From an uncultured Chloroflexota bacterium (GTDB lineage: Bacteria > Chloroflexota > Dehalococcoidia > Lucifugimonadales > GCA-002694895): DNA of 64,000 nucleotides. A program made the position numbers and the translations under genes. The stretch is taken from the NCBI GenBank assembly GCA_913045935.1, contig CAJWSY010000003.1:979-64978 (forward strand), given 5' to 3'. The notes beneath the pieces were generated by a model. That model worked only from the letters and a program-made list of their open reading frames with translations. It was not told where the DNA came from and made no database searches. Of this stretch, positions 3,904 through 55,978 are shown one piece after another (the first letter of the stretch is position 1; each line of letters opens with the position of its first letter).

Positions 3904-3998
3904 CGGGAGCGAGAGGGAATCGAACCCAACGCTTCAATAATTCAATTAAAGCCAACGGAGTTGAAGTCCGTGAAATCCACCAGAATTTATTCACTCCC
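3904..3998 (-). tRNA. selC: tRNA-Sec (anticodon UCA)
   Basis: The minus strand reads GGGAGTGA-AT-AAATTC-TGGT-GGATTT-C-ACGGA-CTTCAAC-TCCGT-TG-GCTTTAAT-TGAATT-ATTGAAGC-G-TTGGG-TTCGATT-CCCTC-TCGCTCCC-G. It has an 8-bp acceptor stem, a 6-bp D stem with a 4-nt loop, anticodon TCA, a 22-nt variable arm with an 8-bp stem, a canonical T loop and a total length of 95 nt. CCA is not encoded. Caveat: the T stem shows only 3 clean G-C pairs. Confidence 0.85.
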
Positions 3999-4005
3999 AA
4001 ATAAA

Positions 4006-4368
4006 TCAAGAAATAATTTTATCTAAACGTTCAGTTAATGTTGATTTGGGAACAGCGCCTACGATTTGATCAATTGCAGCACCATCTTTGAACACAAGTA
4101 AAGTAGGAATTCCTCTAATTCCAAAACTTGCAGCGGTTTGTGGATTAGAATCAACATCAAGTTTAGTAACTTTTAATTTACCATCATATTCATCAGATAA
4201 TTCTTCAACGATTGGTGAAACCATTTTACAAGGACCACACCATTCAGCCCAAAAATCAACTAATACGGGTAGATCAGAATTAAGTACTTCTTCATTAAAG
4301 TTATTATCGGTTATTTCTAAAGCAGCCAAGATTATTCTCCATTTAAATATAAAAGTAAAGAATATCAT
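4006..4368 (-). CDS. trxA: Thioredoxin
   Basis: The active site is WCGPC, in DFWAEWCGPCKMV. The ATG at 4368 adds 13 hydrophobic residues. A TTG at 4329, preceded by GGAGA with a 6-nt spacer, would give a typical thioredoxin of about 107 aa. Confidence 0.9.
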   Translation of the reverse strand: MIFFTFIFKWRIILAALEITDNNFNEEVLNSDLPVLVDFWAEWCGPCKMVSPIVEELSDEYDGKLKVTKLDVDSNPQTAASFGIRGIPTLLVFKDGAAIDQIVGAVPKSTLTERLDKIIS

Positions 4369-4403: not shown

Positions 4404-4931
4404 TTATTTTGGCAGGTCAGATGTTATATCATCAGACTCTCTCCACCATAAAGTTAGCGGAGAAATATTTCGTTCAAGATCAAAAAGCATCCATCCTGTA
4501 ACTTCAAATCCCTTATTTAATTCAATATGGCCACTTAATAAAGGGGTGAATTTGTCTAGTTCTGCTTCTATGGATGAAGTTGAAACTGAGCTTTTATAAG
4601 GATCTATATTCCATCCTCTTGATCCACCTCTATCTCCTAATTCTGCAGCTTCAGTGTCTATAAATAGAGGAACGTATGTTACAGATTCATTGATTATTCT
4701 AACTTTTACTGCGACCAGCTTATTATTTGGTTTTGGTTTAATTAGCCTTATATTACCTTGTGTGTCTGTGAAACTTATTCTGTCTCTTACAATTGGAGCA
4801 AAAGTTTCTATTGCTATGGTTCTACCTTTAGTCAAATTTGATGAGGAATCATCATTTAAACAACTAGTGATCAAGACAGGCAATAATACTATAAAAAATA
4901 TTTTTTTTGTTTTTATTTTTTTTAATAACAT
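4404..4931 (-). CDS. Hypothetical lipoprotein
   Basis: 175-aa ORF with a signal peptide ending in the lipobox LITSC. The mature part is beta-rich and loosely DUF4352-like. I recognise no confident family. Confidence 0.5.
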   Translation of the reverse strand: MLLKKIKTKKIFFIVLLPVLITSCLNDDSSSNLTKGRTIAIETFAPIVRDRISFTDTQGNIRLIKPKPNNKLVAVKVRIINESVTYVPLFIDTEAAELGDRGGSRGWNIDPYKSSVSTSSIEAELDKFTPLLSGHIELNKGFEVTGWMLFDLERNISPLTLWWRESDDITSDLPK

Positions 4932-4943
4932 GATTTTTGCTGA

Positions 4944-6119
4944 TTATTTTCTAATAAATTCTTTTTTATTATCTTTAATTCTTTTTATAATTTTATCAAG
5001 AATATTTAAAAATTGCGTTATTTCATCTTCTGTATTATTTCTTCCTAAGCTTATTCTAACAGTGTTTAGAGCTAAATCAGCATCCATTCCGATAGCTTTG
5101 AGCACATGAGAAGGTTCTAAAGAATTGCTAGTACATGCACTTCCATTAGATATACAAATATCTTCTAAATCTAACGCTGATATTAAATCATCCGATCTTA
5201 TGTCTGGAAAAGTTAAATTAATCATGTTAGGCAGATTAAGTTTAGGATGTCCATTGATAAGTACATTTGGCTGCTGTTCTTTTAAATGATTTATAATTTT
5301 ATTTTTTAAAAATAAGCACTTATCGTAGTTAACTGTTTTTTCATTTTCAGATAATTTTATTGCTTCAGCTGAACCAGAAATAAAAGCTATATTTTCTGTT
5401 CCAGATCTTTTTTGTCTTTCTTGACCTCCTCCTGTAATTAGTGGTTCAAATGGTGTCCCGTTTTTCATAAAGAGCACACCTATCCCTTTTGGACCATTAA
5501 ATTTATGGGCAGACAGGCTCATTAAATCAACTCCTAATTTATTAACATCTAAATCTAAGAAAGGAGCAGCCTGTACTGCATCAGTATGGAAAATTGGGAA
5601 TTGTGAATTGTTGCCTTTGAGTTTTTTTATAGCTTCTCCTATTTCTTTTATTGGATTAATTGACCCAAGTTCATTATTTGCATAGATTACAGATATTAAA
5701 ATAGTGTTTGGTTTGATAGCAGATATCACATCATCTTTTGAAACCATTCCAAATTCATCAGTTGTTAGATATGTTATATCATAACCTTGTTTTTCAAGAT
5801 TATTGCACGTGTGTAATACTGCATGATGCTCAGTGGATGTTGTTATAATATGGTTACCTAAGTTTTTAAGAGCATGTGCAGGCCCTTTTATGGCAGTGTT
5901 ATCCGATTCTGTTCCTCCACTGGTAAATATTATTTCGCTTTCCTTGCAATTTAAAGTGTCCGCAAAAATTTTTCTTGATTGATCAACAGCTAGTCTTGAG
6001 TTTCTAGCAGGAGAATAAGGACTTGAAGGATTTGCAAATGAATTAATTAATTCATTATTTATTATTTCTAAAACTTCTTGTCTTATTTGTGTTGAAGCTG
6101 CATTATCGAGATAAATCAT
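4944..6119 (-). CDS. Cysteine desulfurase (NifS/IscS-like, class V aminotransferase)
   Basis: 391 aa. It starts IYLDNAAST, has the PLP-lysine motif SAHKFNGPKG and the C-terminal active-site loop SNGSACTS. Confidence 0.85.
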   Translation of the reverse strand: MIYLDNAASTQIRQEVLEIINNELINSFANPSSPYSPARNSRLAVDQSRKIFADTLNCKESEIIFTSGGTESDNTAIKGPAHALKNLGNHIITTSTEHHAVLHTCNNLEKQGYDITYLTTDEFGMVSKDDVISAIKPNTILISVIYANNELGSINPIKEIGEAIKKLKGNNSQFPIFHTDAVQAAPFLDLDVNKLGVDLMSLSAHKFNGPKGIGVLFMKNGTPFEPLITGGGQERQKRSGTENIAFISGSAEAIKLSENEKTVNYDKCLFLKNKIINHLKEQQPNVLINGHPKLNLPNMINLTFPDIRSDDLISALDLEDICISNGSACTSNSLEPSHVLKAIGMDADLALNTVRISLGRNNTEDEITQFLNILDKIIKRIKDNKKEFIRK

Positions 6120-8852: not shown

Positions 8853-10460
8853 ATGACTCATGGAATAATCACAGCACCACAACCAGAAGCAGTTGAAACT
8901 GGAGCTCTAGTATTACAAGCTGGAGGAAATGCAGTTGATGCTGCTATTTCTAGTGCGCTTGTTCAAACTGTAGTAGATCCTATGATGTGCGGAATTGCAG
9001 GATTTGGTTCGTTGCAATTATATTTACCAGATAAAAATTTTCATGGATTTATAGATTTTCATACAACAGCGCCTTCTTCTGTGAGTGAAAGTATGTGGGA
9101 AAACCAAATTTCACATGAAGCTAGAGATGGATTTGGTTTTATTTTAAAAAACAGAGCAAATGAAGTTGGTTATGAATCAATAATGACACCAGGTACTTTG
9201 AAAGGATTTTATGAAGCAATAAAAGAGTACGGAACTATGCCTTGGGACAAAATTATTCAACCAGCAATAGATTTTGCTTCGGAAGGATTTTCGATTAGTC
9301 CTGCTATTGATGAATTTTGGGATAGATCTGCTGGTCATGGAAGAATTTCTATGGATGAGAAACTTAGATTAAACCAAAATGCTAGGCGTATATATTTAGA
9401 TGAAAATGGGAATACTTACCCTATCGGAACTCGTATTAAGAATCTAGATATGTTGAATACATTAGAAAAGATCAGAGATCAAGGTATCGAATCTTTTTAC
9501 TCAGGTGAAATAGCAAACAAGATAGTTAAGGATATGAAAGTACACAAAGGATTTTTATCTTTAAAGGATTTAGAAGATTATAAAACAATTCGAAATGAAC
9601 CACTTTGGGGTGAGTACAAAGATATGAAAGTTGCAACTAATCAACCTCCAGGTGGAGGAATTATGGTTATCCAAATGCTTAATATTTTAAATAACTTTGA
9701 TTTACGATCCATGGGACATAATAGCCCTGAATATATTGCTACTGTTTCTGAAGCAATGAAATATGCAACAATCGATAAAGACGCAAAAGTTGGAGACCCT
9801 GATTATCTAGATGTTCCAATTACACAGTTAACAGACCCTCTATATGCACGAGAAATTGCAGATTTAATTAAAAATGGTGTTAGAGCAGATGTGATTAGGT
9901 ATGGTGATTCAAAAGAGTCTGAAGATACTACACATATAGCTGTAATGGATGAATTAGGGAATACTGCTTCAATGACACATTCTTTAGGAATGCCTTCAGG
10001 TGTAATTACAAATGAATTAGGTTTTATGTATAACGGATGTATGAGCGTATTTGATCCCAGGTCAGGCAGAACAGGATCGATAAAGCCGGGTAAAAGAAGA
10101 TTTACCGGAATGAGTCCAACAATAATTTTCAAGGATGACAAACCCCATGTGGTAGTTGGAGCTCCGGGTGGTACATATATAACTATGGGAGTGTTGCAAT
10201 CAATACTAAATGTTGTTGAGTTTGATATGAATATGCAAGAAGCTGTTTCTGCTCCACGTTTTACTGCAAACAGTAATGCTATTGATGTTACAAACCGTAT
10301 TCCTAGATTCGTAACTAAAGAATTAGAAAATAAAGGTTATGAAGTAATTCGAAATCCATTTAGTTATGGTTTTGCAGGAGTTCATGGAATCAGGATAAAA
10401 AATGGTATTTGGGATGGAGGGGCTGATCCAGGTAGAGATGGTATGGTATTGTATATATAG
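8853..10460 (+). CDS. ggt: Gamma-glutamyltransferase (copy 1)
   Basis: 535 aa. The Ntn autoprocessing threonine sits in the context SEDTTHIAVMD. PGGGI and the C-terminal GGADPGRDG are present. Confidence 0.9.
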   Translation: MTHGIITAPQPEAVETGALVLQAGGNAVDAAISSALVQTVVDPMMCGIAGFGSLQLYLPDKNFHGFIDFHTTAPSSVSESMWENQISHEARDGFGFILKNRANEVGYESIMTPGTLKGFYEAIKEYGTMPWDKIIQPAIDFASEGFSISPAIDEFWDRSAGHGRISMDEKLRLNQNARRIYLDENGNTYPIGTRIKNLDMLNTLEKIRDQGIESFYSGEIANKIVKDMKVHKGFLSLKDLEDYKTIRNEPLWGEYKDMKVATNQPPGGGIMVIQMLNILNNFDLRSMGHNSPEYIATVSEAMKYATIDKDAKVGDPDYLDVPITQLTDPLYAREIADLIKNGVRADVIRYGDSKESEDTTHIAVMDELGNTASMTHSLGMPSGVITNELGFMYNGCMSVFDPRSGRTGSIKPGKRRFTGMSPTIIFKDDKPHVVVGAPGGTYITMGVLQSILNVVEFDMNMQEAVSAPRFTANSNAIDVTNRIPRFVTKELENKGYEVIRNPFSYGFAGVHGIRIKNGIWDGGADPGRDGMVLYI

Positions 10461-14027: not shown

Positions 14028-16766
14028 GTGAATAATAATACTGAAAATTTACAAATACCCGATGCAATGAAAAATTTTTCAATCAAGTATATATTGATAA
14101 TAATTTTATCTCTTGTTGGTTTGATATTTGTAGCAAATATATTTAAAAACATTTATACCGAATATTTGTGGTTTACTCATCTTAGTTATGAGGATATTTA
14201 TTTTAAAATTTTAAGAACAAAAATCTATTTATTTCTAGGTGCGTTCTTTGTTTCGTTATTATTTTTATCTGTTAGCACATATTTTGCATTCAAGAATTCT
14301 TGGAAAGGTGTTCAATTTGATTTACCTGAACCTTTTAATTTACTTGGACCAAAATTATATAAATCAATAATAGTGTTACTCGTTATATTAACGAGTGTTG
14401 TTCTTGGATTAACTACTTCTTATAATTGGGAACTATTTTTAAGATTTTTTAATTCTTCTACTTTTGCAATAAATGACCCTATTTTTAATCGAGATATATC
14501 ATTTTATATTTTTGATTTTCCAATTTTCACTTTTATTCAAAAAGGATTATTAATTATCTCGATTTTATCAATGATATATAGTTTGGCAATTATATTTATA
14601 AATTCTGTTTTTGCTGGATTAGAATTTAGTGAAAATACGATAATGAAAAAACAAATGATAATAAATTTTTCTATCATTTTATTATTGTTTAGTATAGGTA
14701 TTCTTTTTTCGAGATGGAATATTCTTTTTTCTGAAACAGGAGTTGTATATGGAGCTGGCTACACTGATGCAAATATTAAAATGAATACTTTGTTTTTCAT
14801 GTCATTTCTAGGATTTATTTTATCTGTATTAGTGTTGTTTTCTCTTAAATATTCTTTAACCAGATTTGTGTATATACCTACTGTAGCTTGGGTGGTTTTA
14901 TATATTATATCAGTAGTTATTTGGCCTTCTGTAACACAAAGATTATCTGTAACTCCAAATGAATATGTTAAAGAAAAACAATATATTTCTAATAATATTG
15001 ATTTAACAAGAAAAGCATACAAATTAGATTTAATTGAAGAAAGTTATTTCCCCGCAAGCTCTAAAATACCAGAATCTATTTTGACTCAAAATAATCAGAC
15101 TTTAAATAATATAAGATTATGGGACTACAAGCCACTAAAAGATGTTTATACTCAAACGCAGCTGATTAGGCCTTATTACGATTTTAAAGATGTGGATGTA
15201 GATAGATATACTATAGATGGAGAGTACAGACAAGTTATGTTGGCTTTAAGAGAAGTCGCACCTGAAAAATTGGACGAAAACAAACAAACTTGGGTAAATA
15301 CATTTTTACAATATACTCACGGTTATGGTTTAACTATGAGCCCTGTTAATTCATTTGACTCTCAAGGGAAACCGTATTTTTTCTCAAAAGATATACCTTC
15401 GGATGGAATAATAAATGTTAAGTCTATGGATGGTAATATACAAAAAGATTTGTCTGTTGAAAATCCAAGAATATATTACGGTGAATCATCATCTCCTTAC
15501 GTGATAGTAAACACTAAAACCATGGAGGTTGATTACCAAGAAAAAGGCAAAGATGGAAAAGAAGGAGTACTCAGAAGACATAATTATGCTGGGTCGGGTG
15601 GTGTTACTCTTGATAGCGTGATAAAAAGAATTTTTTATGCTTGGAAATTTAGAGACATAAATATATTCATTAGTGGAGAAATTACTAGTGAAAGCAAAAT
15701 TCAATATCAAAGAAATATATTAGAGAGAGTTAAAAAATTAGTTCCGTACTTAGAATTGGATTCTGACCCTTATGTAGTTATAACTGATGGAAAATTAAAA
15801 TGGATACAAGATGCATATACAGTATCTGCGAATTACCCTTACTCTGAGCCATCAAATAACGGCTATAATTATTGGAGAAATAGTGTTAAAGCTGTTATAG
15901 ACGCTTATGATGGCACTGTTGAATTTTACATATCAGATAACTCAGACCCTTTGATTGATACCTACTCTAAAATATTTCCTAATGTATTCAAACCAATAAG
16001 TGATATGCCTTCTGATCTTAAAGATCATATAAGATATCCAATTGATTTGTTTAAAGTGCAATCAGAAAAGTATTTAGAATATCATATGCAAGATTCCCAA
16101 ATATTTTATAACAATGAGGACCTATGGAATATTCCAAGAGAAAAATTTGGACAATCAGGCGAGTTACAAAATGTGGAGCCTTACTATATTGTTATGAATT
16201 TACCAGGAAATGACGATTCTGAGTTTGTACTTATCAGGCCATTTACTCCTAATCAAAGAAAAAACTTGATTGGCTGGCTAGCAGGAAGGAGTGATGGAGA
16301 TCAATATGGTAAATTAATTGCTTATAATTTTCCTAAGGATCTTACTATTTACGGTACCGAACAAATAGAAGCTAGAATGGATAATGATCCTATTATTTCC
16401 GAATGGTTTACATTAAGATGTCAAGAAGGATCTTTTTGTATAAGAGGGAATCTTTTAGTTGTACCAATAGGTGATACTATATTGTATGCCGAGCCTATTT
16501 ACTTGCAAGCTGAAGGTGTAGATTTACCGGAATTAAAAAAAGTTGTATTAGCTTCTGCTGATCATGTGATAATGGCCGATTCAGTAAAAGAGGGAGTATC
16601 GATATTACTTGAAAAACAAGCTGGTATTTATAATCAAAATGATAAAGTTTTAGAAGACAAAGAAACTAAACAAGAAAGTATTGATGATGATTTGGATGAG
16701 AAAATAGAAAAATTACTTGAAGAAATTCAAAATATTTTAAATGAAGTAAGAAAAGCAAACAAATAA
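14028..16766 (+). CDS. UPF0182-family large membrane protein (function unknown)
   Basis: 912 aa with a GTG start. The N-terminal third has about 7 hydrophobic helices and is followed by a large soluble region. RLWDYKPL, PYYDFKDVDVDRY and LQYTHGYG are recalled as characteristic of UPF0182. Confidence 0.75.
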   Translation: MNNNTENLQIPDAMKNFSIKYILIIILSLVGLIFVANIFKNIYTEYLWFTHLSYEDIYFKILRTKIYLFLGAFFVSLLFLSVSTYFAFKNSWKGVQFDLPEPFNLLGPKLYKSIIVLLVILTSVVLGLTTSYNWELFLRFFNSSTFAINDPIFNRDISFYIFDFPIFTFIQKGLLIISILSMIYSLAIIFINSVFAGLEFSENTIMKKQMIINFSIILLLFSIGILFSRWNILFSETGVVYGAGYTDANIKMNTLFFMSFLGFILSVLVLFSLKYSLTRFVYIPTVAWVVLYIISVVIWPSVTQRLSVTPNEYVKEKQYISNNIDLTRKAYKLDLIEESYFPASSKIPESILTQNNQTLNNIRLWDYKPLKDVYTQTQLIRPYYDFKDVDVDRYTIDGEYRQVMLALREVAPEKLDENKQTWVNTFLQYTHGYGLTMSPVNSFDSQGKPYFFSKDIPSDGIINVKSMDGNIQKDLSVENPRIYYGESSSPYVIVNTKTMEVDYQEKGKDGKEGVLRRHNYAGSGGVTLDSVIKRIFYAWKFRDINIFISGEITSESKIQYQRNILERVKKLVPYLELDSDPYVVITDGKLKWIQDAYTVSANYPYSEPSNNGYNYWRNSVKAVIDAYDGTVEFYISDNSDPLIDTYSKIFPNVFKPISDMPSDLKDHIRYPIDLFKVQSEKYLEYHMQDSQIFYNNEDLWNIPREKFGQSGELQNVEPYYIVMNLPGNDDSEFVLIRPFTPNQRKNLIGWLAGRSDGDQYGKLIAYNFPKDLTIYGTEQIEARMDNDPIISEWFTLRCQEGSFCIRGNLLVVPIGDTILYAEPIYLQAEGVDLPELKKVVLASADHVIMADSVKEGVSILLEKQAGIYNQNDKVLEDKETKQESIDDDLDEKIEKLLEEIQNILNEVRKANK

Positions 16767-23907: not shown

Positions 23908-24366
23908 TCACTCAGAAATTTTTTCAATTAGTTTATTGTAAAACAAATTATTTTTAGAAAAATTTAGTTTTATTTTGTCGCTTGAATTTATAGATAAACT
24001 TATATTATCTATAAAAAATAATTGATTTATTAATATAATCAACCCAAAAACAAAAGAAGAAAGAGCTAATATAGTATTTATAATTTCATTTTCTAATAGA
24101 TTCATTAAAGGAAAATAAGATATAAACCCTAAAATAGAAAGAATTAATTTAGAGGTGTTAAATCCTTTACTTATTTTTATATTTTTTATGTCATCTATTA
24201 ATAGGATTTGATATTCCCATTTAAAATTAGATTGAATTCTTTTGATAATCCTTTTAGTCGTGATTATTACATAATCATCGGAATTATATTTCAATGAATT
24301 GAATTCTTGTTCTTTTATTAAGTCATATCCAAGTATGAATTTTTCGTCTTCAAAAATGTTAATCAT
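23908..24366 (-). CDS. Hypothetical membrane protein (PH-like N-terminus plus two helices)
   Basis: 152-aa ORF. YVIITTKRIIKR resembles bacterial PH-domain strands and is followed by two hydrophobic segments. No confident family. Confidence 0.4.
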   Translation of the reverse strand: MINIFEDEKFILGYDLIKEQEFNSLKYNSDDYVIITTKRIIKRIQSNFKWEYQILLIDDIKNIKISKGFNTSKLILSILGFISYFPLMNLLENEIINTILALSSFVFGLIILINQLFFIDNISLSINSSDKIKLNFSKNNLFYNKLIEKISE

Positions 24367-27006: not shown

Positions 27007-28644
27007 ATGAAATATACTAATTATCCACCATCTACTAGGCCAACTGCAATGGGTTTTAATGGTATGGCTGCATCTGCACATCCTTATGCTAGTATGGCAG
27101 GAATCAATATTTTAAAAAAAGGTGGGAATGCATTTGATGCAATAGTTGCAATAGCATCAACGTTAAACGTTGTAGAACCTTTCATGTCTGGTATGGGAGG
27201 AGTTGGCGTTGCATTAGTTTACAATTCTAAAGAAAAGAAATTACGTTCACTTAATTTTTCTGGATCAGCGCCTAAATTAGCTGATCCAGAAAAATATACT
27301 GAAGAAGCTAAAAATATAGGGCCTTGGGCACCATTGGTACCTGGAAATGTTGCAGGATGGTTAGAAATTCAAGAAACGTTAGGAAATCTAGAAAGAAAAG
27401 AAGTATTTGAAGAAGCTATAAATTATGCTAAGAATGGATTTCCAATGACACATTTTCATTACACAATGTTTGGTAATTCTGTTGATAGACTAAATAAATT
27501 TCCTTCTGGTGAAATAATATTAAATTCAGGAAAAGTTTCTCCTCCTGGATCTAGGATAAAAATGCCTGAATTAGCAAATTCATTACAGTTGGTTGCAAAT
27601 AAAGGTGCCGATGAGTTTTACAGAGGAAGTATAGCAAAAAAAATAGTTGACTCAATGAAATTATATGGAGGTTTAATTAACGAAGAAGATTTAGATGCTG
27701 TAAAAGCCGAATGGACTGATCCTTTGACAGTCAAATATAAAGATTTTGAAGTTTCTACAGTACCCCCAAATAGTAGTGGATTTCAAATTCTTGAAACTCT
27801 TAAAATTTTAGAAACCCTACCACCTGAAAAAATCAAGTTCCAGGATTCTGATTTTGTTCATACTTTTATAGAAACTGCAAAATTGGCTGCCACTGACAGA
27901 ATTGCATATGGGGGAGATCAATCACTTGGCTTAACTCCAACAGATAAATTGTTATCATCAGATTACGCAAATTATCAATCTAGTAGAATTTCACTAGATA
28001 AAGCTAATTTGTTAGCTGGAGAAGTTTTTAATCCCGATGCTCCTCAAGGTTCTTTGACAGCCGTAGACCTTGATGCATATGATGGTGGAATGACCACACA
28101 TTTTTCAGTTGCAGATAAAGATGGAAATGTAGTATCGATTACTCAAACACTTGGGGGTGGATTTGGATCAGCCCTTGCCCCTGAAGGCACAGGAATATTT
28201 CTTAATAATATGGGAGATTGGTTTGATTTACACGATGGAAGTCGAAATCAAATTGGACCAAACAGAAAGCAGGATATGTGCCTAAGCCCAACACAAACAT
28301 TTAAAAATGGAGAATTTTATGCAAGCGTTGGAACACCCGGAAGTTGGGGGATTTTGCAAACAACATCTCAAATGTTAATTAATTTATTGGATTTTGAAAT
28401 GAATATGCAACAAGTTATTGATTCACCAAGATTTAAAGCTATTGGAGGTAATAGAGTAGAAATGGAATCAAGATTTCCTGTTTCATTAATTGAAAATTTG
28501 AAAGCAAGAGGTCATGAAATAGTAAATCTACCTGATTGGTCACCTAGTGTTGGTGGAGGGCATGGAATAAAATTTGACAAAGAAACAGGATCTTATCAAG
28601 GTGGAGCCGACCCAAGGCGTGACGGATATGCTTTTGGTAACTGA
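27007..28644 (+). CDS. ggt: Gamma-glutamyltransferase (copy 2)
   Basis: 545 aa. It carries DGGMTTHFSVADKDGN (nucleophile Thr) and the C-terminal GGADPRRDG. Confidence 0.9.
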   Translation: MKYTNYPPSTRPTAMGFNGMAASAHPYASMAGINILKKGGNAFDAIVAIASTLNVVEPFMSGMGGVGVALVYNSKEKKLRSLNFSGSAPKLADPEKYTEEAKNIGPWAPLVPGNVAGWLEIQETLGNLERKEVFEEAINYAKNGFPMTHFHYTMFGNSVDRLNKFPSGEIILNSGKVSPPGSRIKMPELANSLQLVANKGADEFYRGSIAKKIVDSMKLYGGLINEEDLDAVKAEWTDPLTVKYKDFEVSTVPPNSSGFQILETLKILETLPPEKIKFQDSDFVHTFIETAKLAATDRIAYGGDQSLGLTPTDKLLSSDYANYQSSRISLDKANLLAGEVFNPDAPQGSLTAVDLDAYDGGMTTHFSVADKDGNVVSITQTLGGGFGSALAPEGTGIFLNNMGDWFDLHDGSRNQIGPNRKQDMCLSPTQTFKNGEFYASVGTPGSWGILQTTSQMLINLLDFEMNMQQVIDSPRFKAIGGNRVEMESRFPVSLIENLKARGHEIVNLPDWSPSVGGGHGIKFDKETGSYQGGADPRRDGYAFGN

Positions 28645-32442: not shown

Positions 32443-32958
32443 ATGAAATCTTTTTTTATATTTTTAACACTATTTATTTGCTTGATTGCTTGTTCTTCAC
32501 AAGAAATAACTACATCGACACAAAATAATCAAACAAGTGAACCCGAAGTAATTTCTTCTGCTTTTTCTTTTGTTTTCGATTCAGGACGTGAACTATCTGA
32601 TAAGACAATTAAAGATTCAGGGATGTCTCATTTCCTGTATTTTTTCACCCCCACCTGAGGTCATTGTATTTCTGAGTTGCAGAAAATAGTTTCAAAATCT
32701 GACGAATTATCTAATACAAAATTTGTAGCAATATCTATTGATCCTTCAATGAAAGAAAGTGAATTTCAGAAATTTAGAGATAAAAATAACCTTAGTGAAT
32801 TAGATATGCTTCCATATAATAAAGAAATGATTTTATTTTTTGAAATTAGCATGAGAGGTTCCAAACGAATTTTAAATCAAAATTCTAATTTGATTTACTC
32901 AGGAAATATGTCAGATTACGAATTTGACTTGTGGAAGGAATTATTAAATGAACAATAA
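32443..32958 (+). CDS. Thioredoxin-fold (TlpA/ResA/redoxin-like) lipoprotein with in-frame UGA; candidate selenoprotein with a UGHC redox motif
   Basis: ORF-track fragments 32443-32658 and 32677-32958 are in the same frame, separated only by TGA (32656-32658) plus 6 sense codons. The joined text reads ...SHFLYFFTPT-U-GHCISELQKIV...KFVAISIDPS..., matching the FWAxWCxxC...V.vs.D layout of TlpA-like redoxins with the TGA at the first Cys position. The N-terminus is a lipoprotein signal (LIACSS). The second fragment has no ATG of its own, only an internal TTG. A hairpin follows the TGA. Confidence 0.75.
32663..32690 (+). promoter_or_regulatory. Candidate bacterial SECIS stem-loop downstream of the in-frame UGA
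   Basis: The upper stem TTTCTG (32669-32674) pairs with CAGAAA (32680-32685) around the loop AGTTG. This is a 17-nt element beginning 11 nt after the TGA codon. The lower stem ATTGT (32663-32667) pairs with ATAGT (32686-32690), including two G-U pairs, and A32668 is bulged. Confidence 0.5.
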
Positions 32959-33418
32959 TCAGAACATAAATAATTCAATTGTTATATCAGCTGATCATGG
33001 TGGTTATGATTTAAAAGAAGAACTAAAGCTTTTTATATCTGAAAATTATCCAGAAATGACAATTATCGATGCTGGTGCTTATCAGTATGACTCTGAAGAT
33101 GATTTTCCTGATATGACTAAAAATCTAACTGACGTAATACATAAAGGTGATGCAATGCGCGGGATTGCAATATGTGGGTCAGGCGTGGGAGCATCAATTG
33201 TGGCTAATAAAAACCCAGGAATTAGAGCAGCCGTTTGTCATGATGTTTATAGTGCTGCTCAAGGTGTAGAGCATAATAATATGAATGTTTTGTGCATGGG
33301 TGGGAGAGTTATTGACATTGACTCAGCTAAGCAAATTGTAAAAAGTTTCTTGAATGCAAATTTTATTGAAGAACCCAAGTATGTAAGAAGGCTAAATAAA
33401 ATTAATAAACTGGATTAA
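32948..33418 (+). CDS. rpiB: Ribose-5-phosphate isomerase B
   Basis: 156 aa. Motifs are ISADHGGYDLKEEL and GIAICGSGVGASIVANK. Its start overlaps the end of the selenoprotein candidate by 11 nt. Confidence 0.9.
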   Translation: MNNNQNINNSIVISADHGGYDLKEELKLFISENYPEMTIIDAGAYQYDSEDDFPDMTKNLTDVIHKGDAMRGIAICGSGVGASIVANKNPGIRAAVCHDVYSAAQGVEHNNMNVLCMGGRVIDIDSAKQIVKSFLNANFIEEPKYVRRLNKINKLD

Positions 33419-34171
33419 TCCTTCATATATCAATCTCATTGCAAGAATTGTCAATATAAAATAAAAAACTCTTCCAAATATTTTTTCATTTATATTTGTT
33501 AATATTTTTTTGCCTGTCCAAGTCCCAAATATTCCAAATATAATCATTGTGATGATCAGATATATATATTCTGAAAAAGAAAACCCAAGGAAAATAAAAA
33601 CAATTATTTTTATTCCATGCTTCCAAGTCATAAATGCTGCTTGTGTAGCTACAGTTGATTGTCTGTTCTTGGTAAATGATTTGATAAATGGTGCCATAAT
33701 TGGGCCTGATGCACCAATGAACATTGTTAGAAATGATGATATCAAACCAACTAGACCAATGCTTTTATTAGATATTTTGATGTTTCTAGATTGAGGTACG
33801 TATATTGAATATAAAATAAATATTCCAATTAAGGATTGAATAATGTGCTTAGGTAAATCAATTAATATAATTCCAGCAATAGAAACTCCAATTAACGAAC
33901 CAAATATAAATGGAGTAAAGTATTTCAAATCAATATGTTCACGGAGCATTACCGCTCTTGTGGAATTAGAACTTATTTGTATTACAGCATGAACGGGAAC
34001 AATAGCTAGTGGATTTAAAATATTTACCATAATTAGAATTAAAAGCGCTCCTCCTCCGAGTCCAAATGAAGCTGTAATAGTTGATGTGATGTAACTACTT
34101 AAACAAAGTATTAGAAATTCCCATACTGTGAAATTATTTGTGGTTGTGATAAAAGAGATTATTTCAGGCAT
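33392..34171 (-). CDS. TauE/SafE (DUF81) family anion exporter-like membrane protein
   Basis: 259 aa with about 8 hydrophobic helices and the internally duplicated 4-TM pattern typical of DUF81. Confidence 0.75.
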   Translation of the reverse strand: MPEIISFITTTNNFTVWEFLILCLSSYITSTITASFGLGGGALLILIMVNILNPLAIVPVHAVIQISSNSTRAVMLREHIDLKYFTPFIFGSLIGVSIAGIILIDLPKHIIQSLIGIFILYSIYVPQSRNIKISNKSIGLVGLISSFLTMFIGASGPIMAPFIKSFTKNRQSTVATQAAFMTWKHGIKIIVFIFLGFSFSEYIYLIITMIIFGIFGTWTGKKILTNINEKIFGRVFYFILTILAMRLIYEGLIQFINFI

Positions 34172-38248: not shown

Positions 38249-39889
38249 ATGAAGACTATTGTGTATATTGTTGGATTTTCTGGGACTGGCAAATCAGTCT
38301 CATCAGAACTTGCAGCCAAATCATTAGGATGGAAATATTATGATATGGACAAAATTATAGAGTACGAATCAGGGAAATCAATAAATGAAATTTTTGATAG
38401 TAATGGGGAATCTTGGTTCAGGAAAAAAGAATCTGAATTATTAATCAGACTATCAAAAGAAAGTAATTGTATTATTTCTACAGGGGGAGGAGTTCCAATT
38501 TCAAAAGATAATATAAAAAAAATGAATCAAACAGGATATGTGATATCTTTAGATGCTTCAATTAGTACTATTATAAAAAGATTAGATCAAAATAATGTTG
38601 ACGGTGAAAATGAAAAGACAATCAGGCCTAAATTATCAAATTTTACCCCTGAAAAAATAAAAAAACTTAAATCTGACAGGTCGGATGCATATTCTAGTTC
38701 AAATTATATTATTAATACAAATAACAAAACTGTGGAAGAAGTTGCAAATAATATAGTTTATGAAACTGAAAAATATATATCAGACTTAATTGGTAATTCG
38801 TTATCTAAAATTGATTCTTTTTGTACAAATGTAAAATCTAAAAATGATCAATATGGAGTATTTGTTGGTTTGGATATATATAAAAACTTACCTCAGGTAA
38901 TATCAAATTTAACCAATAGAGATAAATTTTATTTACTTGCAGATGATGGATCTAAATCTTATATGAGAGATATACAAAACATATTTGAATTAGCGGGCAA
39001 AAATACTACTACTTTTGTTATTCCTCAAGGTGAGTCTAGTAAATCATTAGAAATATCCTCAAAAATTTATGAGTGGTTATCAATCGAACATGCTGATAGA
39101 GGTGATATGTTAATTGGGATTGGGGGAGGAGTGGTTGGAGACATTACAGGTTTTGTTGCTTCCACATACATGCGAGGGATAAAATTTGTTTTACTTCCTA
39201 CAACACTTCTTTCTATGTCTGATTCATCAATAGGTGGCAAAACTGCTGTAGATGTAAATAATATAAAAAATTTGGTGGGTTCGTTTTATAATCCTTCACT
39301 AGTATATTCAGATTTGCGTTCATTAAATACGTTGCCCCAAAGACAAATAAGTTCTGGATGGGCTGAATTAATTAAACATGGATTTATAAAAGATAAAATA
39401 TTATTACGTGAAATGATGGATATTTCAAATTATAAAGATATTGATCAAAACATTAGTGAAATCATAAAAAGAAGTATCCAGATTAAAGGTGACATAGTTA
39501 CGGTTGATGAAAATGAAAAATATGGATCACGAATTATGCTTAATTACGGACACACTTTGGGACATGCAATAGAAAGTTCTACAAATTTAGAGCAATATAC
39601 GCATGGAGAAGCCGTTAGTATTGGAATGACTTTTGCTGCAAAATTAAGTCATCATTTAAATATGCTAAGTCATGATGAGCTAGATTTCCATAATAAAATT
39701 TTACAAAAATTTGATCTACCTATAAAGACAAATAATATAGATTGGGATAAATGTTACGAGTTAATGTTAAATGATAAAAAAGTAATAAACGGTCAAATTA
39801 ATTGGATTTTATTAGAGTCACTAGGTAAATCTATTTTGAAAAATGATATAAATAAAGAGACAATATATAAAGTTTTTGAGAGTATGTAG
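38249..39889 (+). CDS. aroB: Fused shikimate kinase / 3-dehydroquinate synthase
   Basis: 546 aa. The N-terminal P-loop GFSGTGKS marks the shikimate kinase part. The C-terminal DHQ synthase part carries GGGVVGDITGFVA and LNYGHTLGHAIE. Confidence 0.9.
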   Translation: MKTIVYIVGFSGTGKSVSSELAAKSLGWKYYDMDKIIEYESGKSINEIFDSNGESWFRKKESELLIRLSKESNCIISTGGGVPISKDNIKKMNQTGYVISLDASISTIIKRLDQNNVDGENEKTIRPKLSNFTPEKIKKLKSDRSDAYSSSNYIINTNNKTVEEVANNIVYETEKYISDLIGNSLSKIDSFCTNVKSKNDQYGVFVGLDIYKNLPQVISNLTNRDKFYLLADDGSKSYMRDIQNIFELAGKNTTTFVIPQGESSKSLEISSKIYEWLSIEHADRGDMLIGIGGGVVGDITGFVASTYMRGIKFVLLPTTLLSMSDSSIGGKTAVDVNNIKNLVGSFYNPSLVYSDLRSLNTLPQRQISSGWAELIKHGFIKDKILLREMMDISNYKDIDQNISEIIKRSIQIKGDIVTVDENEKYGSRIMLNYGHTLGHAIESSTNLEQYTHGEAVSIGMTFAAKLSHHLNMLSHDELDFHNKILQKFDLPIKTNNIDWDKCYELMLNDKKVINGQINWILLESLGKSILKNDINKETIYKVFESM

Positions 39890-40731
39890 TGGTTTTAATT
39901 TTATATTATTTTTTAGCTAGTTTAATATCTTCAACTTTAGGTACATTGATTGGAGCAGGAGGTAGTGCAATATTGGGACCTTTGCTTCTGATTACAGAAA
40001 CTTCTATGGGCACATCAATTGGAGCAAAAAACATAATAGGTACTTCTTTGGCATGTGTAGTAGCAAATAGTGTGTCAGGTTCATATCGGTATTTGAAAAT
40101 AGGAACTGTAGATATCAAAAGTGGTTTGATTTTTAGTGTTATTGGAATTCCTTTTAGCATACTTGCAGCCCTAGCACTCATAGAAATTGATACAACTAAC
40201 TTTAAAATTATGTTTGGTGTCACATTGATATTAATAACGATATTTATGATATATCAATCTATGAAAAATGAAATTATAGGAGAATCAAACAGTATTATAA
40301 AATTGAACAATAAATTTTTCTCAGAAAATAGAGAAATTGTTACAAAAGATTCTCAAATCTATAAATACACATTTAGTATGGGAGTCGCTGCTTTTTATAA
40401 TATATTCTTGGGTTTCGTAGCTACTTTTTTTGGTATTGGGGGAGGAATAATTCGAACACCTTTATTGATTTATATTTCAAGATTTCCAGTAAAGATTGCT
40501 ACTGCCACATCTGTATTTAGCCTACTATTTACATCTTTAGCTGGTACTATTGTGTATTGGTGGCAAGGTTTTTATGATCTTAATTTGTTTTTTCCTGCAG
40601 CAACAGGAGCGTTATTTGGAGCTCAAATAGGCGCGCAAGTAAGTAGGTTTTTAAATGGTCAATGGATTATAAGAATATTAGCTCTTGTTTTATTAAGTAT
40701 GGGATTATTGTTAATTATTCAAAATACTTAA
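39889..40731 (+). CDS. TauE/SafE (DUF81) family membrane protein (second copy)
   Basis: 280 aa, polytopic. The GTG start overlaps the aroK/aroB stop by 1 nt. Confidence 0.75.
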   Translation: MVLILYYFLASLISSTLGTLIGAGGSAILGPLLLITETSMGTSIGAKNIIGTSLACVVANSVSGSYRYLKIGTVDIKSGLIFSVIGIPFSILAALALIEIDTTNFKIMFGVTLILITIFMIYQSMKNEIIGESNSIIKLNNKFFSENREIVTKDSQIYKYTFSMGVAAFYNIFLGFVATFFGIGGGIIRTPLLIYISRFPVKIATATSVFSLLFTSLAGTIVYWWQGFYDLNLFFPAATGALFGAQIGAQVSRFLNGQWIIRILALVLLSMGLLLIIQNT

Positions 40732-41933: not shown

Positions 41934-42740
41934 ATGAAAACAATTCTGAAACTATTAATTATAATTATTGATAAATTTGAACACTCAAATTACTGTAAAT
42001 TAAGAAATGTAATTAGTTTACTTTTGAATAGAGACTATAAATTAAGTTTTGTTAAATCTGAAAATATGTATAAGAAAACATATAAGAATAAAAAGTATGT
42101 ATATTATTCTGATAAAAAAAGAGCTGTTAGAATTCATTCTCCTTACAACGAAATGATTAGTAATTTAATTTATAGTTATTGCCTTGAAAACATAGATTTT
42201 AAAGATAATGATGTGATTATTGACTGCGGAGCTAATATAGGAGAATTAGGTTTGTTTTTTTCTGAACAAAATTTTTTAGTAAACTATATTGGATTAGAGC
42301 CATCCAGTAAAGAATTTTCAGCATGCAAATTAAATAATCCACATTCTGAAATTTTAAATTTAGGATTATGGAACAAAAAAAGTAAATTAAATTTTTACAT
42401 TAAATCTGAAACAGCTGATTCTTCGGTGTTTGAAATTGATGATTATAAAGAGATAGTCACTATTAAAGTAGATAGACTTGATAGCATCATAGATAAAGAA
42501 AAATATAAATCTATAAAATTATTGAAAATTGATGCAGAAGGAGCGGAACCTGAAATTTTAGAAGGTACGAAAAATCTTTTAGGTATAATTGAATATATTT
42601 CTGTTGATGTGGGCCCCGAAAGAGGTATAGATCAGAAAAGTACAGACTATGAAGTAACGACCTTTCTAACAAATAATAATTTTAAATTAATTACAGAAAA
42701 CACTAATAGAAAATCAAAATTGTTTCAAAATAAACATTAA
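41934..42740 (+). CDS. FkbM-family methyltransferase
   Basis: 268 aa. Motifs are VIIDCGANIGELGLFF and LKIDAEGAEPEILEG. Confidence 0.8.
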   Translation: MKTILKLLIIIIDKFEHSNYCKLRNVISLLLNRDYKLSFVKSENMYKKTYKNKKYVYYSDKKRAVRIHSPYNEMISNLIYSYCLENIDFKDNDVIIDCGANIGELGLFFSEQNFLVNYIGLEPSSKEFSACKLNNPHSEILNLGLWNKKSKLNFYIKSETADSSVFEIDDYKEIVTIKVDRLDSIIDKEKYKSIKLLKIDAEGAEPEILEGTKNLLGIIEYISVDVGPERGIDQKSTDYEVTTFLTNNNFKLITENTNRKSKLFQNKH

Positions 42741-44065
42741 TTTATTAAAGATTTCCACTTTTCTACTTCATCGTAAATATCTTTGTCATTAATATAATTA
42801 AATTTTTGATTGTCAGGATGGATAGTATGTTTTCTTTTTATGTATCTATCTAGTTGAGATTTTCTTAGAATTTGTACAATAAAATTTCTTAAATGATAAT
42901 TTAATCCTATTGGTTTGGGGATTATTATATTTTCATTTTTATAGTATTTATTTATATCTCTTTCTATAGGCTTGTGTGTAGTAGATTCTTGATGTATAAA
43001 ATCAACTAATTTTTCTATAACATCATATTCCGGTGATATGTTCTTATTAGCCCATTTTTTTAATTTGAGATCTTTATTATTGTTAAAGCTTTGGTTCTGA
43101 ATTAATTGTTCAAAATTATCAAGAGATTTGATTTTTGGTAAGAATTCAAACCACTCACTGATCATATATTTGGGTAAAGTAAAAGGTTGCAACATATATG
43201 TAGGTTTTTCAGATAAAGCGGATTCGATTAAAGTTGTACTATAATTTGAAATGATTAAATCACTTGATAATATCCAGTCTCTTGCATTCCCTTCTTTGAT
43301 GAAATATAAGTTGGGATGTAATTCTTTATTGATTTTTTTATAATATTTTACAAAATCTGTAGTTGGAGTCATGGGTCTAGGCCTGATAATTAAGTTTATG
43401 TCAAAATTAGAAATAATATGATGTATCCATTTCATTGTTTCTTCATAAGAATTTTTTACAAATAATTGAACTTCTAAAGATATATCTTTATCTTGTTTAA
43501 CCGGTTTAAATACAGATTTGTCTCCTCCGAATATAGCCCCATAATTTTCAGGGAAGAATACCCATGGTTTGTTTTTGTTAATATCATATTTTTTTGATAA
43601 ATAATTTTTATCTAAAAATAAATTATTATATGGAGGTTTGTATAACTGATATTGCAAATTGCCATTCACAAATATATTTTTGTCATTTACACCATTATCA
43701 ATCAAAAATTGTTTGTAGTTTTCACTCCAAGTTAAATGTGTAACTTCATTTTTTACAAATTCACTGGTTGGTTTGCGGAAAGTTAGTTGGTGAGGTCTAA
43801 ATATTTGTTCGTAATTTAAATTTATTATTTTTGCATCACTCCAGGTATAAATAAAAGGAAACACAATAGAATTTAACGTTCTGAAAAAAGGAGTTAATAC
43901 AATCCGGGGTCGTATGGAATTAATATTTGAGCGGTCTCTTGTAGATTTAATATAAACTGAATAATTGTATCTTGTTTCCAAAAGCATTTTTATTATACAT
44001 GCGACTGCAAATTCTCTTGCTTTATGTTCAATTAATATAACTATTGAATGTTTGTCATTATTCAT
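42737..44065 (-). CDS. Putative surface polysaccharide biosynthesis protein (TagF/KpsS-like GT-B fold)
   Basis: 442 aa. The C-terminal half (WVFFPENYG...DWILSSDLIISNYSTTLIESALSEKPTYML) resembles CDP-glycerol glycerophosphotransferase and capsule-synthesis proteins. This is pattern-level recognition only. Confidence 0.4.
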   Translation of the reverse strand: MNNDKHSIVILIEHKAREFAVACIIKMLLETRYNYSVYIKSTRDRSNINSIRPRIVLTPFFRTLNSIVFPFIYTWSDAKIINLNYEQIFRPHQLTFRKPTSEFVKNEVTHLTWSENYKQFLIDNGVNDKNIFVNGNLQYQLYKPPYNNLFLDKNYLSKKYDINKNKPWVFFPENYGAIFGGDKSVFKPVKQDKDISLEVQLFVKNSYEETMKWIHHIISNFDINLIIRPRPMTPTTDFVKYYKKINKELHPNLYFIKEGNARDWILSSDLIISNYSTTLIESALSEKPTYMLQPFTLPKYMISEWFEFLPKIKSLDNFEQLIQNQSFNNNKDLKLKKWANKNISPEYDVIEKLVDFIHQESTTHKPIERDINKYYKNENIIIPKPIGLNYHLRNFIVQILRKSQLDRYIKRKHTIHPDNQKFNYINDKDIYDEVEKWKSLIN

Positions 44066-54754: not shown

Positions 54755-55978
54755 TTGAGCAATATATTAAATTATTCAAAAAAAATAAGTTTGGTTTTTC
54801 TTGGCTTTCTTTTCGCATTCATTATATTAGAATTATGTGTGAGAATTCTTTTTAGTGTTTTACCTGATCAATATTTACCTTCTTATGGAATATATCAAAG
54901 TACTGATCCTGTAGTAGGTCCAAAATTAATTCCAGAATCAAGAGGTATTTGGAATAAGGAAGGTTTCTCTAAAGTTGAAATCAATTCTAAAGGTTGGAAT
55001 GATTTTGAAAGACAATACAATAAACCGCAAGATGTAGTTAGAGTGGCAATTGTTGGAGATTCATTTATTGAGGCTCTTCAAGTTCCTAAAACAGATTCTG
55101 TAGCTTCCAAACTAGAATCATGGCTAGATGTGAACTGTAAATACAAAATGGATGATATTAGATATGAAGTACTATCATTTGGAGCATCTGGTTGGGGCAC
55201 AACACAAATGCATTTAGCAATTAACAACGAAATTATTCAATATGATCCAGATTTCGTAATTATGGCTTTTTTCCCTGGCAATGATTTGAAAAATAATATT
55301 TATGAATTGGAATTAAATTCTAATAGACCTTATTTCAAAATAGAAAATGGATCATTAATCCAATCGTCATTTCCAACTATAAATAATAGTTTTAAGAGAT
55401 CTGTATATACATTTTTACGGGATAATTTTTTAATGATCCAGTTAATTCGAGAGCCTATAGTAAATATATTTTGGGAATTTTCTCGTGAAGAAAAAATAAA
55501 AGAATCAAATTCTGAAGGCAAATCTAATTATTCTGATAGATTAGAGTTAATAGACAGAGGTACGTGGGGTAATGATTTAGATAATGAATTTGTTGAATAT
55601 TCTTGGAATTTGTTTGAATTAATCCTTTTAAAAACTAAAGAAGATTTGAATGATAAAAACATTGAATTTATTACTCTTGTGGTATCTAGAGGCGAAGTTG
55701 TTGATAATCGTAAAAATGAAGTCGAGCAATGGGCTATAAAAAATAATTATTCAAATATATTTTACCCTGAAGATAGAGTAGAAAATTTCGGTAAAAAAAA
55801 TGATATCCCTGTTATTGCTATTTCTCGTATGATGACTGATTTGAATTGGGATCTTAGTAAAGAAATTGCATACTTTCATGGTTTTGGTCATAATTTAGGT
55901 GGAGGGCATTGGAATAAAAATGGTCACAACCTAACTAGTTCAATAATTGGGGAGAAAATTTGTGGTTTAAGAAAATAA
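54755..55978 (+). CDS. Membrane-anchored SGNH/GDSL-type hydrolase or O-acyltransferase-like protein
   Basis: 407 aa with a TTG start and an N-terminal TM helix. SGNH blocks are VAIVGDSFIE, GASGWG, FFPGNDL and GGGHWNKNGH. Confidence 0.55.
   Translation: MSNILNYSKKISLVFLGFLFAFIILELCVRILFSVLPDQYLPSYGIYQSTDPVVGPKLIPESRGIWNKEGFSKVEINSKGWNDFERQYNKPQDVVRVAIVGDSFIEALQVPKTDSVASKLESWLDVNCKYKMDDIRYEVLSFGASGWGTTQMHLAINNEIIQYDPDFVIMAFFPGNDLKNNIYELELNSNRPYFKIENGSLIQSSFPTINNSFKRSVYTFLRDNFLMIQLIREPIVNIFWEFSREEKIKESNSEGKSNYSDRLELIDRGTWGNDLDNEFVEYSWNLFELILLKTKEDLNDKNIEFITLVVSRGEVVDNRKNEVEQWAIKNNYSNIFYPEDRVENFGKKNDIPVIAISRMMTDLNWDLSKEIAYFHGFGHNLGGGHWNKNGHNLTSSIIGEKICGLRK

Follow-up and report, generated by a model that had tools for sequence, protein, structure and literature searches.

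The region 32443-32958 of the DNA analysed here is highly likely to be one gene whose codon 72, a UGA in frame, undergoes recoding; the residue is most probably selenocysteine (Sec). The DNA, called the window in this work, is the whole stretch of 64,000 nt from an uncultured Chloroflexota bacterium (contig CAJWSY010000003.1). We infer that the residue inserted is Sec, and the protein is best placed in the TlpA/ResA-like superfamily, as a new, lineage-restricted branch that contains Sec.

The ATG at 32443 starts a 71-codon open reading frame (ORF) which runs up to the TGA at 32656-32658, and the same frame is then open to the TAA at 32956-32958. As stated in the original prediction, which was made from the letters of the window, this TGA is the sole break between the ORFs 32443-32658 and 32659-32958, and the coordinates and the 171-residue joined product could be confirmed. 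The product starts with MKSFFIFLTLFICLIAC, which contains the lipobox LIAC, and then reads, in this order, FLYFFTPT-(TGA)-GHCISELQK, AISIDP, RGSKRIL, YSGNM and LWKELLNEQ; the tryptic peptide across the UGA is DSGMSHFLYFFTPT-U-GHCISELQK. The lipoprotein signal claimed in the prediction agrees with this lipobox and with the conservation of Cys17 in at least 90% of a 67-sequence alignment. The lipobox is followed by a Ser/Thr/Asn/Gln-rich linker (residues ~18-38), which is disordered according to the structure model described below, where the predicted local distance difference test score (pLDDT) is below 50 for residues 21-34. The prediction also held that the downstream fragment has neither an ATG nor a ribosome binding site of its own. 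The second half of this statement stands, as no Shine-Dalgarno-like sequence was found upstream of TTG 32677 or ATG 32749, while the first does not, since these two start-like codons (codons 79 and 103) are in frame; translation starting at either one would remove the conserved active-site helix. A bare pair of ORFs bridged by a TGA is not rare in the window, where 21 other TGAs are likewise flanked on both sides by 40 or more open codons, all of them in shadow frames, and for this reason the case rests on comparative evidence.

Table 1. Position of the selenoprotein gene, its parts and related features in the window.
Feature	Position	Strand	Details
Complete selenoprotein gene (predicted)	32443..32958	+	171 codons; in-frame UGA at codon 72; TAA 32956-32958
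Signal peptide and lipobox L-I-A-C	32443..32493	+	Cys17 (32491-32493) is the predicted lipidated residue; read from sequence
UGA codon 72, predicted Sec, N-terminal redox residue of U-G-H-C	32656..32658	+	TGA in all orthologues examined; aligns with first Cys of CxxC
Cys75 (TGT), resolving Cys of UxxC	32665..32667	+	Invariant in 17- and 67-sequence alignments
Candidate minimal bacterial SECIS, 17-nt hairpin	32669..32685	+	5' arm UUUCUG 32669-32674; loop AGUUG 32675-32679; 3' arm CAGAAA 32680-32685
Invariant loop R138-G139-S140-K141-R142	32854..32868	+	At the place of the cis-Pro loop, just before strand beta3; family alignment
rpiB (ribose-5-phosphate isomerase B)	32948..33418	+	Pfam LacAB_rpiB 1.5e-45; start overlaps the end of the selenoprotein gene by 11 nt
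selC (tRNA-Sec, anticodon UCA)	3904..3998	-	ARAGORN; Rfam RF01852 63.7 bits (gathering score 47), E = 3.9e-13, full length

A search of 5.8 billion proteins gave eight full-length homologues with 49-96% identity, all listed with a tryptophan at the UGA column, and their DNA reads TGA at that codon. The gene including its TGA is present in five metagenome-assembled genomes (MAGs) titled Dehalococcoidia, SAR202 or Chloroflexota, found in a scan of one genome per species, and the five have a GC content of about 30%, the same as the window. Scanning of metagenomes yielded eight more loci, with the TGA in frame in seven, while the remaining one (L019) has the TGA and an upstream indel. Taken together, at least 14 distinct coding sequences from AT-rich marine MAGs and from ocean metagenomes (the set comprises L001-L006, the five species-representative MAGs and seven further metagenome contigs) keep the TGA at 49-97% amino acid identity and have no indel across the junction. 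In a representative library of 1.84 billion proteins the N-terminal fragments P0013, P0017, P0025 and P0027 end exactly at the residues PT preceding this codon.

Downstream of the TGA, close pairs have ratios of non-synonymous to synonymous substitution rates (dN/dS) of 0.056 (window and L013), 0.095, 0.14 and 0.16, and distant pairs, in which synonymous sites are saturated, have 0.2-0.4 (overall range 0.06-0.39); these values are equal to or lower than those upstream. The family has 40 invariant residues, mostly downstream of the TGA, and no extra stops. Residues 73-102 (GHCISELQK to AISIDP) are among the most conserved and M103 is invariant. Purifying selection after the TGA thus excludes a pseudogene and makes two independent genes very unlikely. 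Orthologues could have been expected to stop at the TGA, or to be decayed in their second half, if the prediction were wrong; the 14 distinct orthologues continue in frame and conserved, and no decay was detected. The only disrupted copy among about 20 loci is L019 (JYMV01025236.1), where a 1-nt indel within a T homopolymer just upstream of the TGA (position ~1680-1700) shifts the frame; this is probably an assembly error, but L019 could be a decaying copy.

Distant homologues are single chains with a CxxC motif, including P0021 (FFSSS-CPTC-KSEL), P0026 (FFSPY-CGTC-RGEL) and more than ten WCPxC proteins. They match Pfam Redoxin, AhpC-TSA and Thioredoxin_8 and the NCBIfam models ResA, DsbE and TlpA, and several carry the NCBI name "TlpA family protein disulfide reductase". 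The first CxxC cysteine of these homologues falls into the UGA column of the multiple alignment. Alignment by hhalign of the UGA family with 16 Cys homologues extends over 160 columns (99.8% probability, E = 2e-28) and sets W(U)72 opposite the first Cys, and the profile made from the UGA family only matches the PDB entry 2m72 (NCKPC) in the same register. The proposal that the TGA occupies the position of the N-terminal redox Cys, with a Cys column of redoxin/TlpA-type proteins at codon 72, is thus supported.

The relative P0019, a protein of 183 amino acids with about 24% identity, reads FLSRY-W-GKC-RSEL with a tryptophan at the UGA column; this is probably another TGA called under genetic code 4, and P0019 would then represent a second Sec lineage. 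Two multi-match proteins, P0014 and P0018, came from the search of the representative library. P0014 is a tandem-repeat protein of 1071 amino acids having 16 matches to the active-site part of the profile via SPHWSTCITQLQ; we rejected it as a relative, because it is an unrelated repeat protein with a chance resemblance through SPHWSTCITQLQ. This false positive calls for caution in motif-based mining for selenoproteins.

The TlpA/ResA-type fold proposed originally was confirmed by profile and structure comparison. The AlphaFold (AF2) model, built on a 66-sequence alignment and carrying a tryptophan at position 72, has a mean pLDDT of 83.8 and values above 90 over residues 40-160; an earlier model from an 8-sequence alignment (pLDDT 46) was discarded. 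In Foldseek the model is matched best, at a probability of 1.00, by ResA, StoA, DsbE, MPT53 and Etrx1, a lipoprotein thioredoxin of the pneumococcus; the TM-scores normalised to the target are 0.72-0.77 for ResA, Etrx1, StoA and MPT53. The model has an N-terminal beta-hairpin (strands 42-44 and 50-52) and an insert (121-132) as in TlpA/ResA, and U72-G-H-C75 is located where strand 62-68 leads into helix 73-88 (alpha1). The family profile matches ResA structures at E = 1e-21. The peroxiredoxin motif PxxxTxxC/U is absent from the protein, which has (T/S)-P-T-U-G-H-C with Leu and not Pro at -7, and the Pfam cut-off for AhpC-TSA is not reached (18.6 against 26 bits).

K141 of the loop RGSKR is invariant in 67 homologues, and the position of G139 is Ser or Thr in Cys homologues. 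The whole clade of these TlpA-like homologues, including Sec and Cys forms, is devoid of the cis-proline and shows T-T-T-K, Q-S-T-K or R-G-S-K-R instead. Invariant throughout the clade are K141, D100 and W164, and many of its Cys forms come from MAGs of DPANN archaea. Replacement of the cis-proline together with an invariant lysine is unusual for CxxC oxidoreductases.

The candidate Sec insertion sequence (SECIS) is a small hairpin beginning 10 nt after the UGA, with the start of its loop (consensus AGUUR) at a distance of 16 nt. Standard pairs occupy every one of the 78 pair cells in 13 distinct sequences, and sliding of the 3' partner arm lowers the pairing to 35-80%. A compensatory change from U-A to C-G is found in L007, L015 and L016, combining a synonymous Ser change (TCT to TCC) with Gln CAG to Arg CGG, and the hairpin of L015 has an additional U-G wobble. 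Codon choice is restricted in the same place. Glu78 is GAG in 14 of 14 sequences, as compared to 13% of the Glu codons in window genes, and its third-position G is loop position 2. Codon 80 is CAG wherever it encodes Gln and CGG (Arg) in L007 and L015; CAG accounts for 12% of the Gln codons of the window, and its third-position G pairs with the C of the Ser77 codon, which is only TCT or TCC. For invariant residues, codons +1 to +10 have a synonymous entropy of 0.29, versus 0.82 elsewhere. As synonymous divergence between clades is near saturation, this codon constraint represents a real constraint at the RNA level.

The published model for bacterial SECIS elements (bSECIS) includes a loop of 3-9 nt, a stem of 4-16 bp, a minimum free energy (MFE) of -7.5 kcal/mol or lower, a G as one of the first two loop nucleotides, mostly with a G or U after it, and a distance of 16-37 nt from the UGA to the loop (PMC13188914). 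The hairpin agrees with three of these four constraints: loop and stem comprise 5 nt and 6 bp, the second loop nucleotide is a G with a U after it, and the loop is 16 nt away from the UGA. The minimal SECIS of E. coli fdhF is reportedly a 17-nt upper stem-loop located 11 nt from the UGA. The window hairpin resembles the fdhF type in having 17 nt, a distance of 10 nt and G-U in a small apical loop; in distinction to fdhF and to the bSECIS consensus its stem is A-U-rich with two G-C pairs, and it has no conserved lower stem and no bulged U. A lower stem formed by the extension AUUGU/AUAGU is possible in the window sequence but lost in other clades and was discarded as a conserved element. Rfam families gave no match to the post-UGA region at E <= 10, bacterial SECIS elements being poorly modelled in Rfam. 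Apart from shadow-frame artefacts no other selenoprotein genes, whose SECIS could be compared, were detected in the window and in the five MAG loci. The hairpin is a probable minimal SECIS in a genome of 30% GC, and we infer that it is bound by SelB.

TGA is otherwise a genuine stop in the window, as had been noted for argJ, argG, tsaD and the second ggt. It terminates 15 of the 63 ORFs of at least 110 amino acids, including besides these four genes trx, ruvX and a gene of the major facilitator superfamily, and the family-invariant Trp164 is encoded by TGG. A genome-wide reassignment of TGA (genetic code 4 or 25) was excluded on these two grounds. The selC gene listed in the original prediction was found by both ARAGORN and Rfam. 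It lies 7 nt downstream of a Cys-type thioredoxin gene (4006-4368, minus strand; WCGPC, stop TGA), further upstream of which are a 175-amino-acid ORF without Pfam match (4404-4931) and a class-V aminotransferase (4944-6119).

A number of observations weigh against the reading of the locus as a TlpA/ResA-like selenoprotein gene. No Cys form was found within the close family, and the nearest Cys homologues are only about 21-24% identical. The window protein on its own stays below all Pfam and NCBIfam cut-offs, the best being Thioredoxin_8 with 21.1 against 27 bits, and for this reason membership in the TlpA/ResA group is supported through intermediate homologues and through profile-profile and structure comparison. 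The canonical cis-proline is absent, hidden Markov model (HMM) alignments to 2yp6 and to ResA (4nmu) putting a proline opposite G139, and the chemistry may thus differ from that of ResA/TlpA. None of selA, selB and selD is found among the approximately 59 window ORFs scanned, and none adjoins the tRNA-Sec. As to the RNA, the hairpin alone has -4.3 kcal/mol and the best local fold containing it, with an extension that is not conserved, -6.7 kcal/mol, which misses the threshold of -7.5 kcal/mol; the variant in L007 has -10.1 kcal/mol. The region 32650-32720 has an MFE of -8.2 kcal/mol, no better than shuffled sequences (z = 0.14), and its MFE structure differs from the conserved hairpin. The covariation amounts to one compensatory event, probably single and common to L007, L015 and L016, and nucleotide conservation near the hairpin is partly due to the invariant peptide ISELQK. 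Since the MFE of the region is at the level of shuffles, folding energy was dropped as evidence for a SECIS. The hairpin which the prediction had placed after the TGA is present and constrained, but it is small and thermodynamically weak, and its description was overstated.

The weak hairpin and the lack of selA, selB and selD in the window would fit with SECIS-independent read-through or near-cognate decoding, in which a Trp, Cys or suppressor tRNA reads the UGA and the protein carries W/C-G-H-C without selenium; public pipelines do give a W at this codon on short contigs. These W calls are artefacts of code 4 on contigs below 2 kb, the DNA being TGA while Trp164 is TGG. A tRNA-Sec is encoded in the same window, rare codons keep a G-containing loop at the canonical distance, and although a single mutation would give TGG or TGT, lineages whose synonymous divergence is saturated have kept TGA. 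The codon furthermore sits in the catalytic Cys column of a CxxC family, the site where Sec replaces Cys elsewhere (PMC1088965). We consider such read-through very improbable. Genuine termination, giving a 71-amino-acid lipopeptide alone or in addition to a separate C-terminal protein starting at TTG 32677 or ATG 32749, is what gene callers imply by their calls of 71 and 93 or 69 amino acids, and the invariance of M103 would be in line with it. Sec insertion is generally inefficient, and some truncated product is likely to be made even if Sec is inserted. As the sole outcome, termination would leave the highly conserved residues 73-102 untranslated or split off, from internal starts devoid of a Shine-Dalgarno-like sequence; both halves make up one thioredoxin fold, with the strand before and the helix after the UGA, Cys homologues are single chains, and all orthologues keep the frame over the junction without indels. 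This makes it more improbable still than read-through. Least probable, to a degree that we hardly credit it, is a pseudogene or sequencing artefact, by which a nonsense change of TGT, TGC or TGG to TGA would have inactivated a TlpA-like gene. The window sequence taken alone is compatible with it, as is the frameshift that L019 has shortly before the TGA. Against it, at least 14 independent sequences, which differ in sample, assembler and species and go down to 49% identity, have this same TGA, dN/dS downstream of it is 0.06-0.39, and the indel of L019 is unique and falls within a long run of T, as is typical of assembly errors.

A different type of alternative accepts the selenoprotein but not the ResA/TlpA-type reductase, and would make it a Sec peroxidase (of the peroxiredoxin (Prx) or glutathione peroxidase (GPx) type) or an oxidase/isomerase acting on exported proteins in the manner of protein disulfide isomerase (PDI). 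The invariant RGSKR in place of the cis-Pro loop, with K141 invariant in the wider clade, speaks for it, as do the G-H dipeptide shared with PDI, weak sub-threshold matches to AhpC-TSA (18.6 bits), pdi_dom and the BCP structure 2cx3, and the lack of a reductant supplier of the ccdA/dsbD type nearby in the window. The absence of the Prx signature and the thioredoxin-type spacing of UxxC do not fit with a peroxidase, and it is ResA, StoA, Etrx and DsbE, rather than Prx/GPx, that match best in structure and profile. We regard this alternative as unlikely, though clearly less so than read-through, termination or decay.

Returning to a selenoprotein of the ResA/TlpA type, the following mechanism can be proposed. 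The hairpin at 32669-32685 would recruit SelB and the Sec-tRNA(Sec) made from selC, and Sec would be inserted at codon 72; translation would then proceed to the TAA at 32956 without terminating. The preprotein, as judged from its N-terminus, would be exported across the cytoplasmic membrane of the host, a marine SAR202-related Dehalococcoidia bacterium which is presumably monoderm, and stay attached to the outer face of this membrane by a lipid at Cys17; the flexible linker would hold out the TlpA/ResA-like thioredoxin-fold domain. By analogy to the family, Sec72 at the N-terminus of helix alpha1 would act as nucleophile on a substrate disulfide or oxidised species, and Cys75 would resolve the mixed intermediate to give a Sec72-Cys75 selenenylsulfide, after which the enzyme would be recycled. 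The protein may according to its family be termed an extracytoplasmic selenol/thiol-disulfide oxidoreductase working in the manner of ResA/TlpA/StoA/Etrx. It may function as a reductase, or as a PDI-like oxidase/isomerase as the G-H dipeptide hints; either direction of catalysis is conceivable in view of the PDI-type G-H, the change of the cis-proline to Gly139 in RGSKR and the fact that no supplier of the CcdA/DsbD type is encoded nearby. In the window there are no ccdA, dsbD or cytochrome c maturation genes.

With ResA, TlpA, StoA, CcmG (DsbE) and Etrx (CDD cd02966) the protein shares the fold, including the N-terminal beta-hairpin and the central insert, and a redox motif located where helix alpha1 begins. 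Pneumococcal Etrx1 (4hqs) likewise has a membrane or lipoprotein anchor, that of the window protein being predicted from sequence. It differs from this group by the predicted Sec in place of the first Cys, by G-H in place of P-x, by a Thr replacing the preceding Trp (WCxxC) and by the Gly in RGSKR replacing the cis-proline, and identity is only 12-19%. The active-site motif of PDI is CGHC. The PDI a-domains thus have an identical G-H dipeptide, and there is a weak pdi_dom match and PDI structures are among the profile matches; unlike PDI the window protein is a predicted single-domain bacterial lipoprotein with a TlpA-type insert and a predicted Sec for Cys.

Among the selenoproteins of marine bacteria, UxxC proteins with a thioredoxin fold are the most common type, and the first Cys of CxxC is where Sec replaces Cys in known families (PMC1088965). 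Those described from the Sargasso Sea comprise Prx-like, thioredoxin, glutaredoxin, DsbA-like and "thiol-disulfide isomerase-like" families (PMC1088965), and a review of 2026 mentions TlpA-type UGC proteins and several selenoprotein families modelled in NCBIfam (PMC13188914). The window protein is like the known marine UxxC families, among them also a Prx-like thiol:disulfide oxidoreductase and a thiol:disulfide interchange protein, in having a predicted Sec at the first CxxC position and a candidate SECIS within the coding region after the UGA (PMC1088965, PMC13188914). It is unlike the Sargasso "thiol-disulfide isomerase-like" family, which reads W-U-T-W-C (AACY01592196, MVLVDFETDWuTWCDRL) and is unrelated in sequence. 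Neither the window protein nor P0008 matched the NCBIfam models NF041054 (WAxxUGC) and NF053656 (TUGYCR) at E <= 10, and among the relatives there were weak matches (0.01-0.05) of P0019 and P0021 to NF053656 and of P0026 to NF041054, all far short of the model cut-offs of 100 and 300 bits. The strings GHCISEL, UGHC and SIDP are absent from the Sargasso selenoprotein supplement, and GHCISEL, UGHC and RGSKRI were not found in the accessible part of the Global Ocean Sampling (GOS) selenoproteome supplements. A search for literature on selenocysteine in SAR202 or on a UGHC motif returned nothing relevant. It is conceivable, although we hold it for somewhat doubtful, that the protein stands for a selenoprotein family not yet described, which would be limited to AT-rich marine Dehalococcoidia related to SAR202. 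The idea is based on the lack of a curated model, the absence from the text of the Sargasso list and from the accessible part of the GOS lists, the non-canonical active site, the minimal SECIS and the mistranslation under code 4. If there is such a family with a sub-threshold SECIS, the selenoproteomes of low-GC marine lineages would be systematically under-counted.

Public collections give the locus in two forms. On long contigs it is broken up into unnamed fragments of 71 and 93 or 69 amino acids, much as the original prediction had expected from standard gene callers (two hypothetical fragments), and on contigs below 2 kb it is given as a 171-amino-acid protein with a false Trp at the UGA from code-4 gene calling. 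Reading the locus as one selenoprotein gene, and not as two fragments or a Trp protein, corrects a systematic database error, and the switch to code 4 on short contigs is a general route to mistranslated selenoproteins in AT-rich genomes. The candidate SECIS would be a natural case of a very small and weak element, of the kind that threshold-based SECIS finders could miss. For the widespread uncultured Chloroflexota of the ocean the gene adds a predicted surface-exposed Sec redox enzyme and would imply a selenium requirement. The Cys-containing clade without cis-proline and with an invariant Lys may deserve biochemical attention. The concepts of the field are unchanged by these data, UxxC thioredoxin-fold selenoproteins being already well known.

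The only conserved neighbour of the selenoprotein gene is rpiB, whose functional link to it is not evident. The start of rpiB overlaps the 3' end of the selenoprotein gene in AATGAACAATAA (32948-32958), and the overlap is also present in L001, L002, L005 (there of 17 nt) and L006. This conserved overlap is suggestive of a common transcript and of coupled translation with a pentose-phosphate gene. Convergent with rpiB, directly behind the selenoprotein gene, is a gene for a TauE/SafE-family membrane protein (33392-34171, minus strand), and a second member of this family is encoded at 39889-40731 (plus strand). Three ORFs have no Pfam match, namely 42737-44065 (minus strand, 442 amino acids) and 54755-55978 (plus strand, 407 amino acids), both at E <= 1e-3, and 23908-24366 (minus strand, 152 amino acids) at E <= 1e-5. 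The window further contains two gamma-glutamyltranspeptidase paralogues (8853-10460 and 27007-28644) and a 912-amino-acid UPF0182 membrane protein (14028-16766, plus strand), which is encoded inside the arginine cluster argJ-argB-UPF0182-argD-argG, with argH further along.

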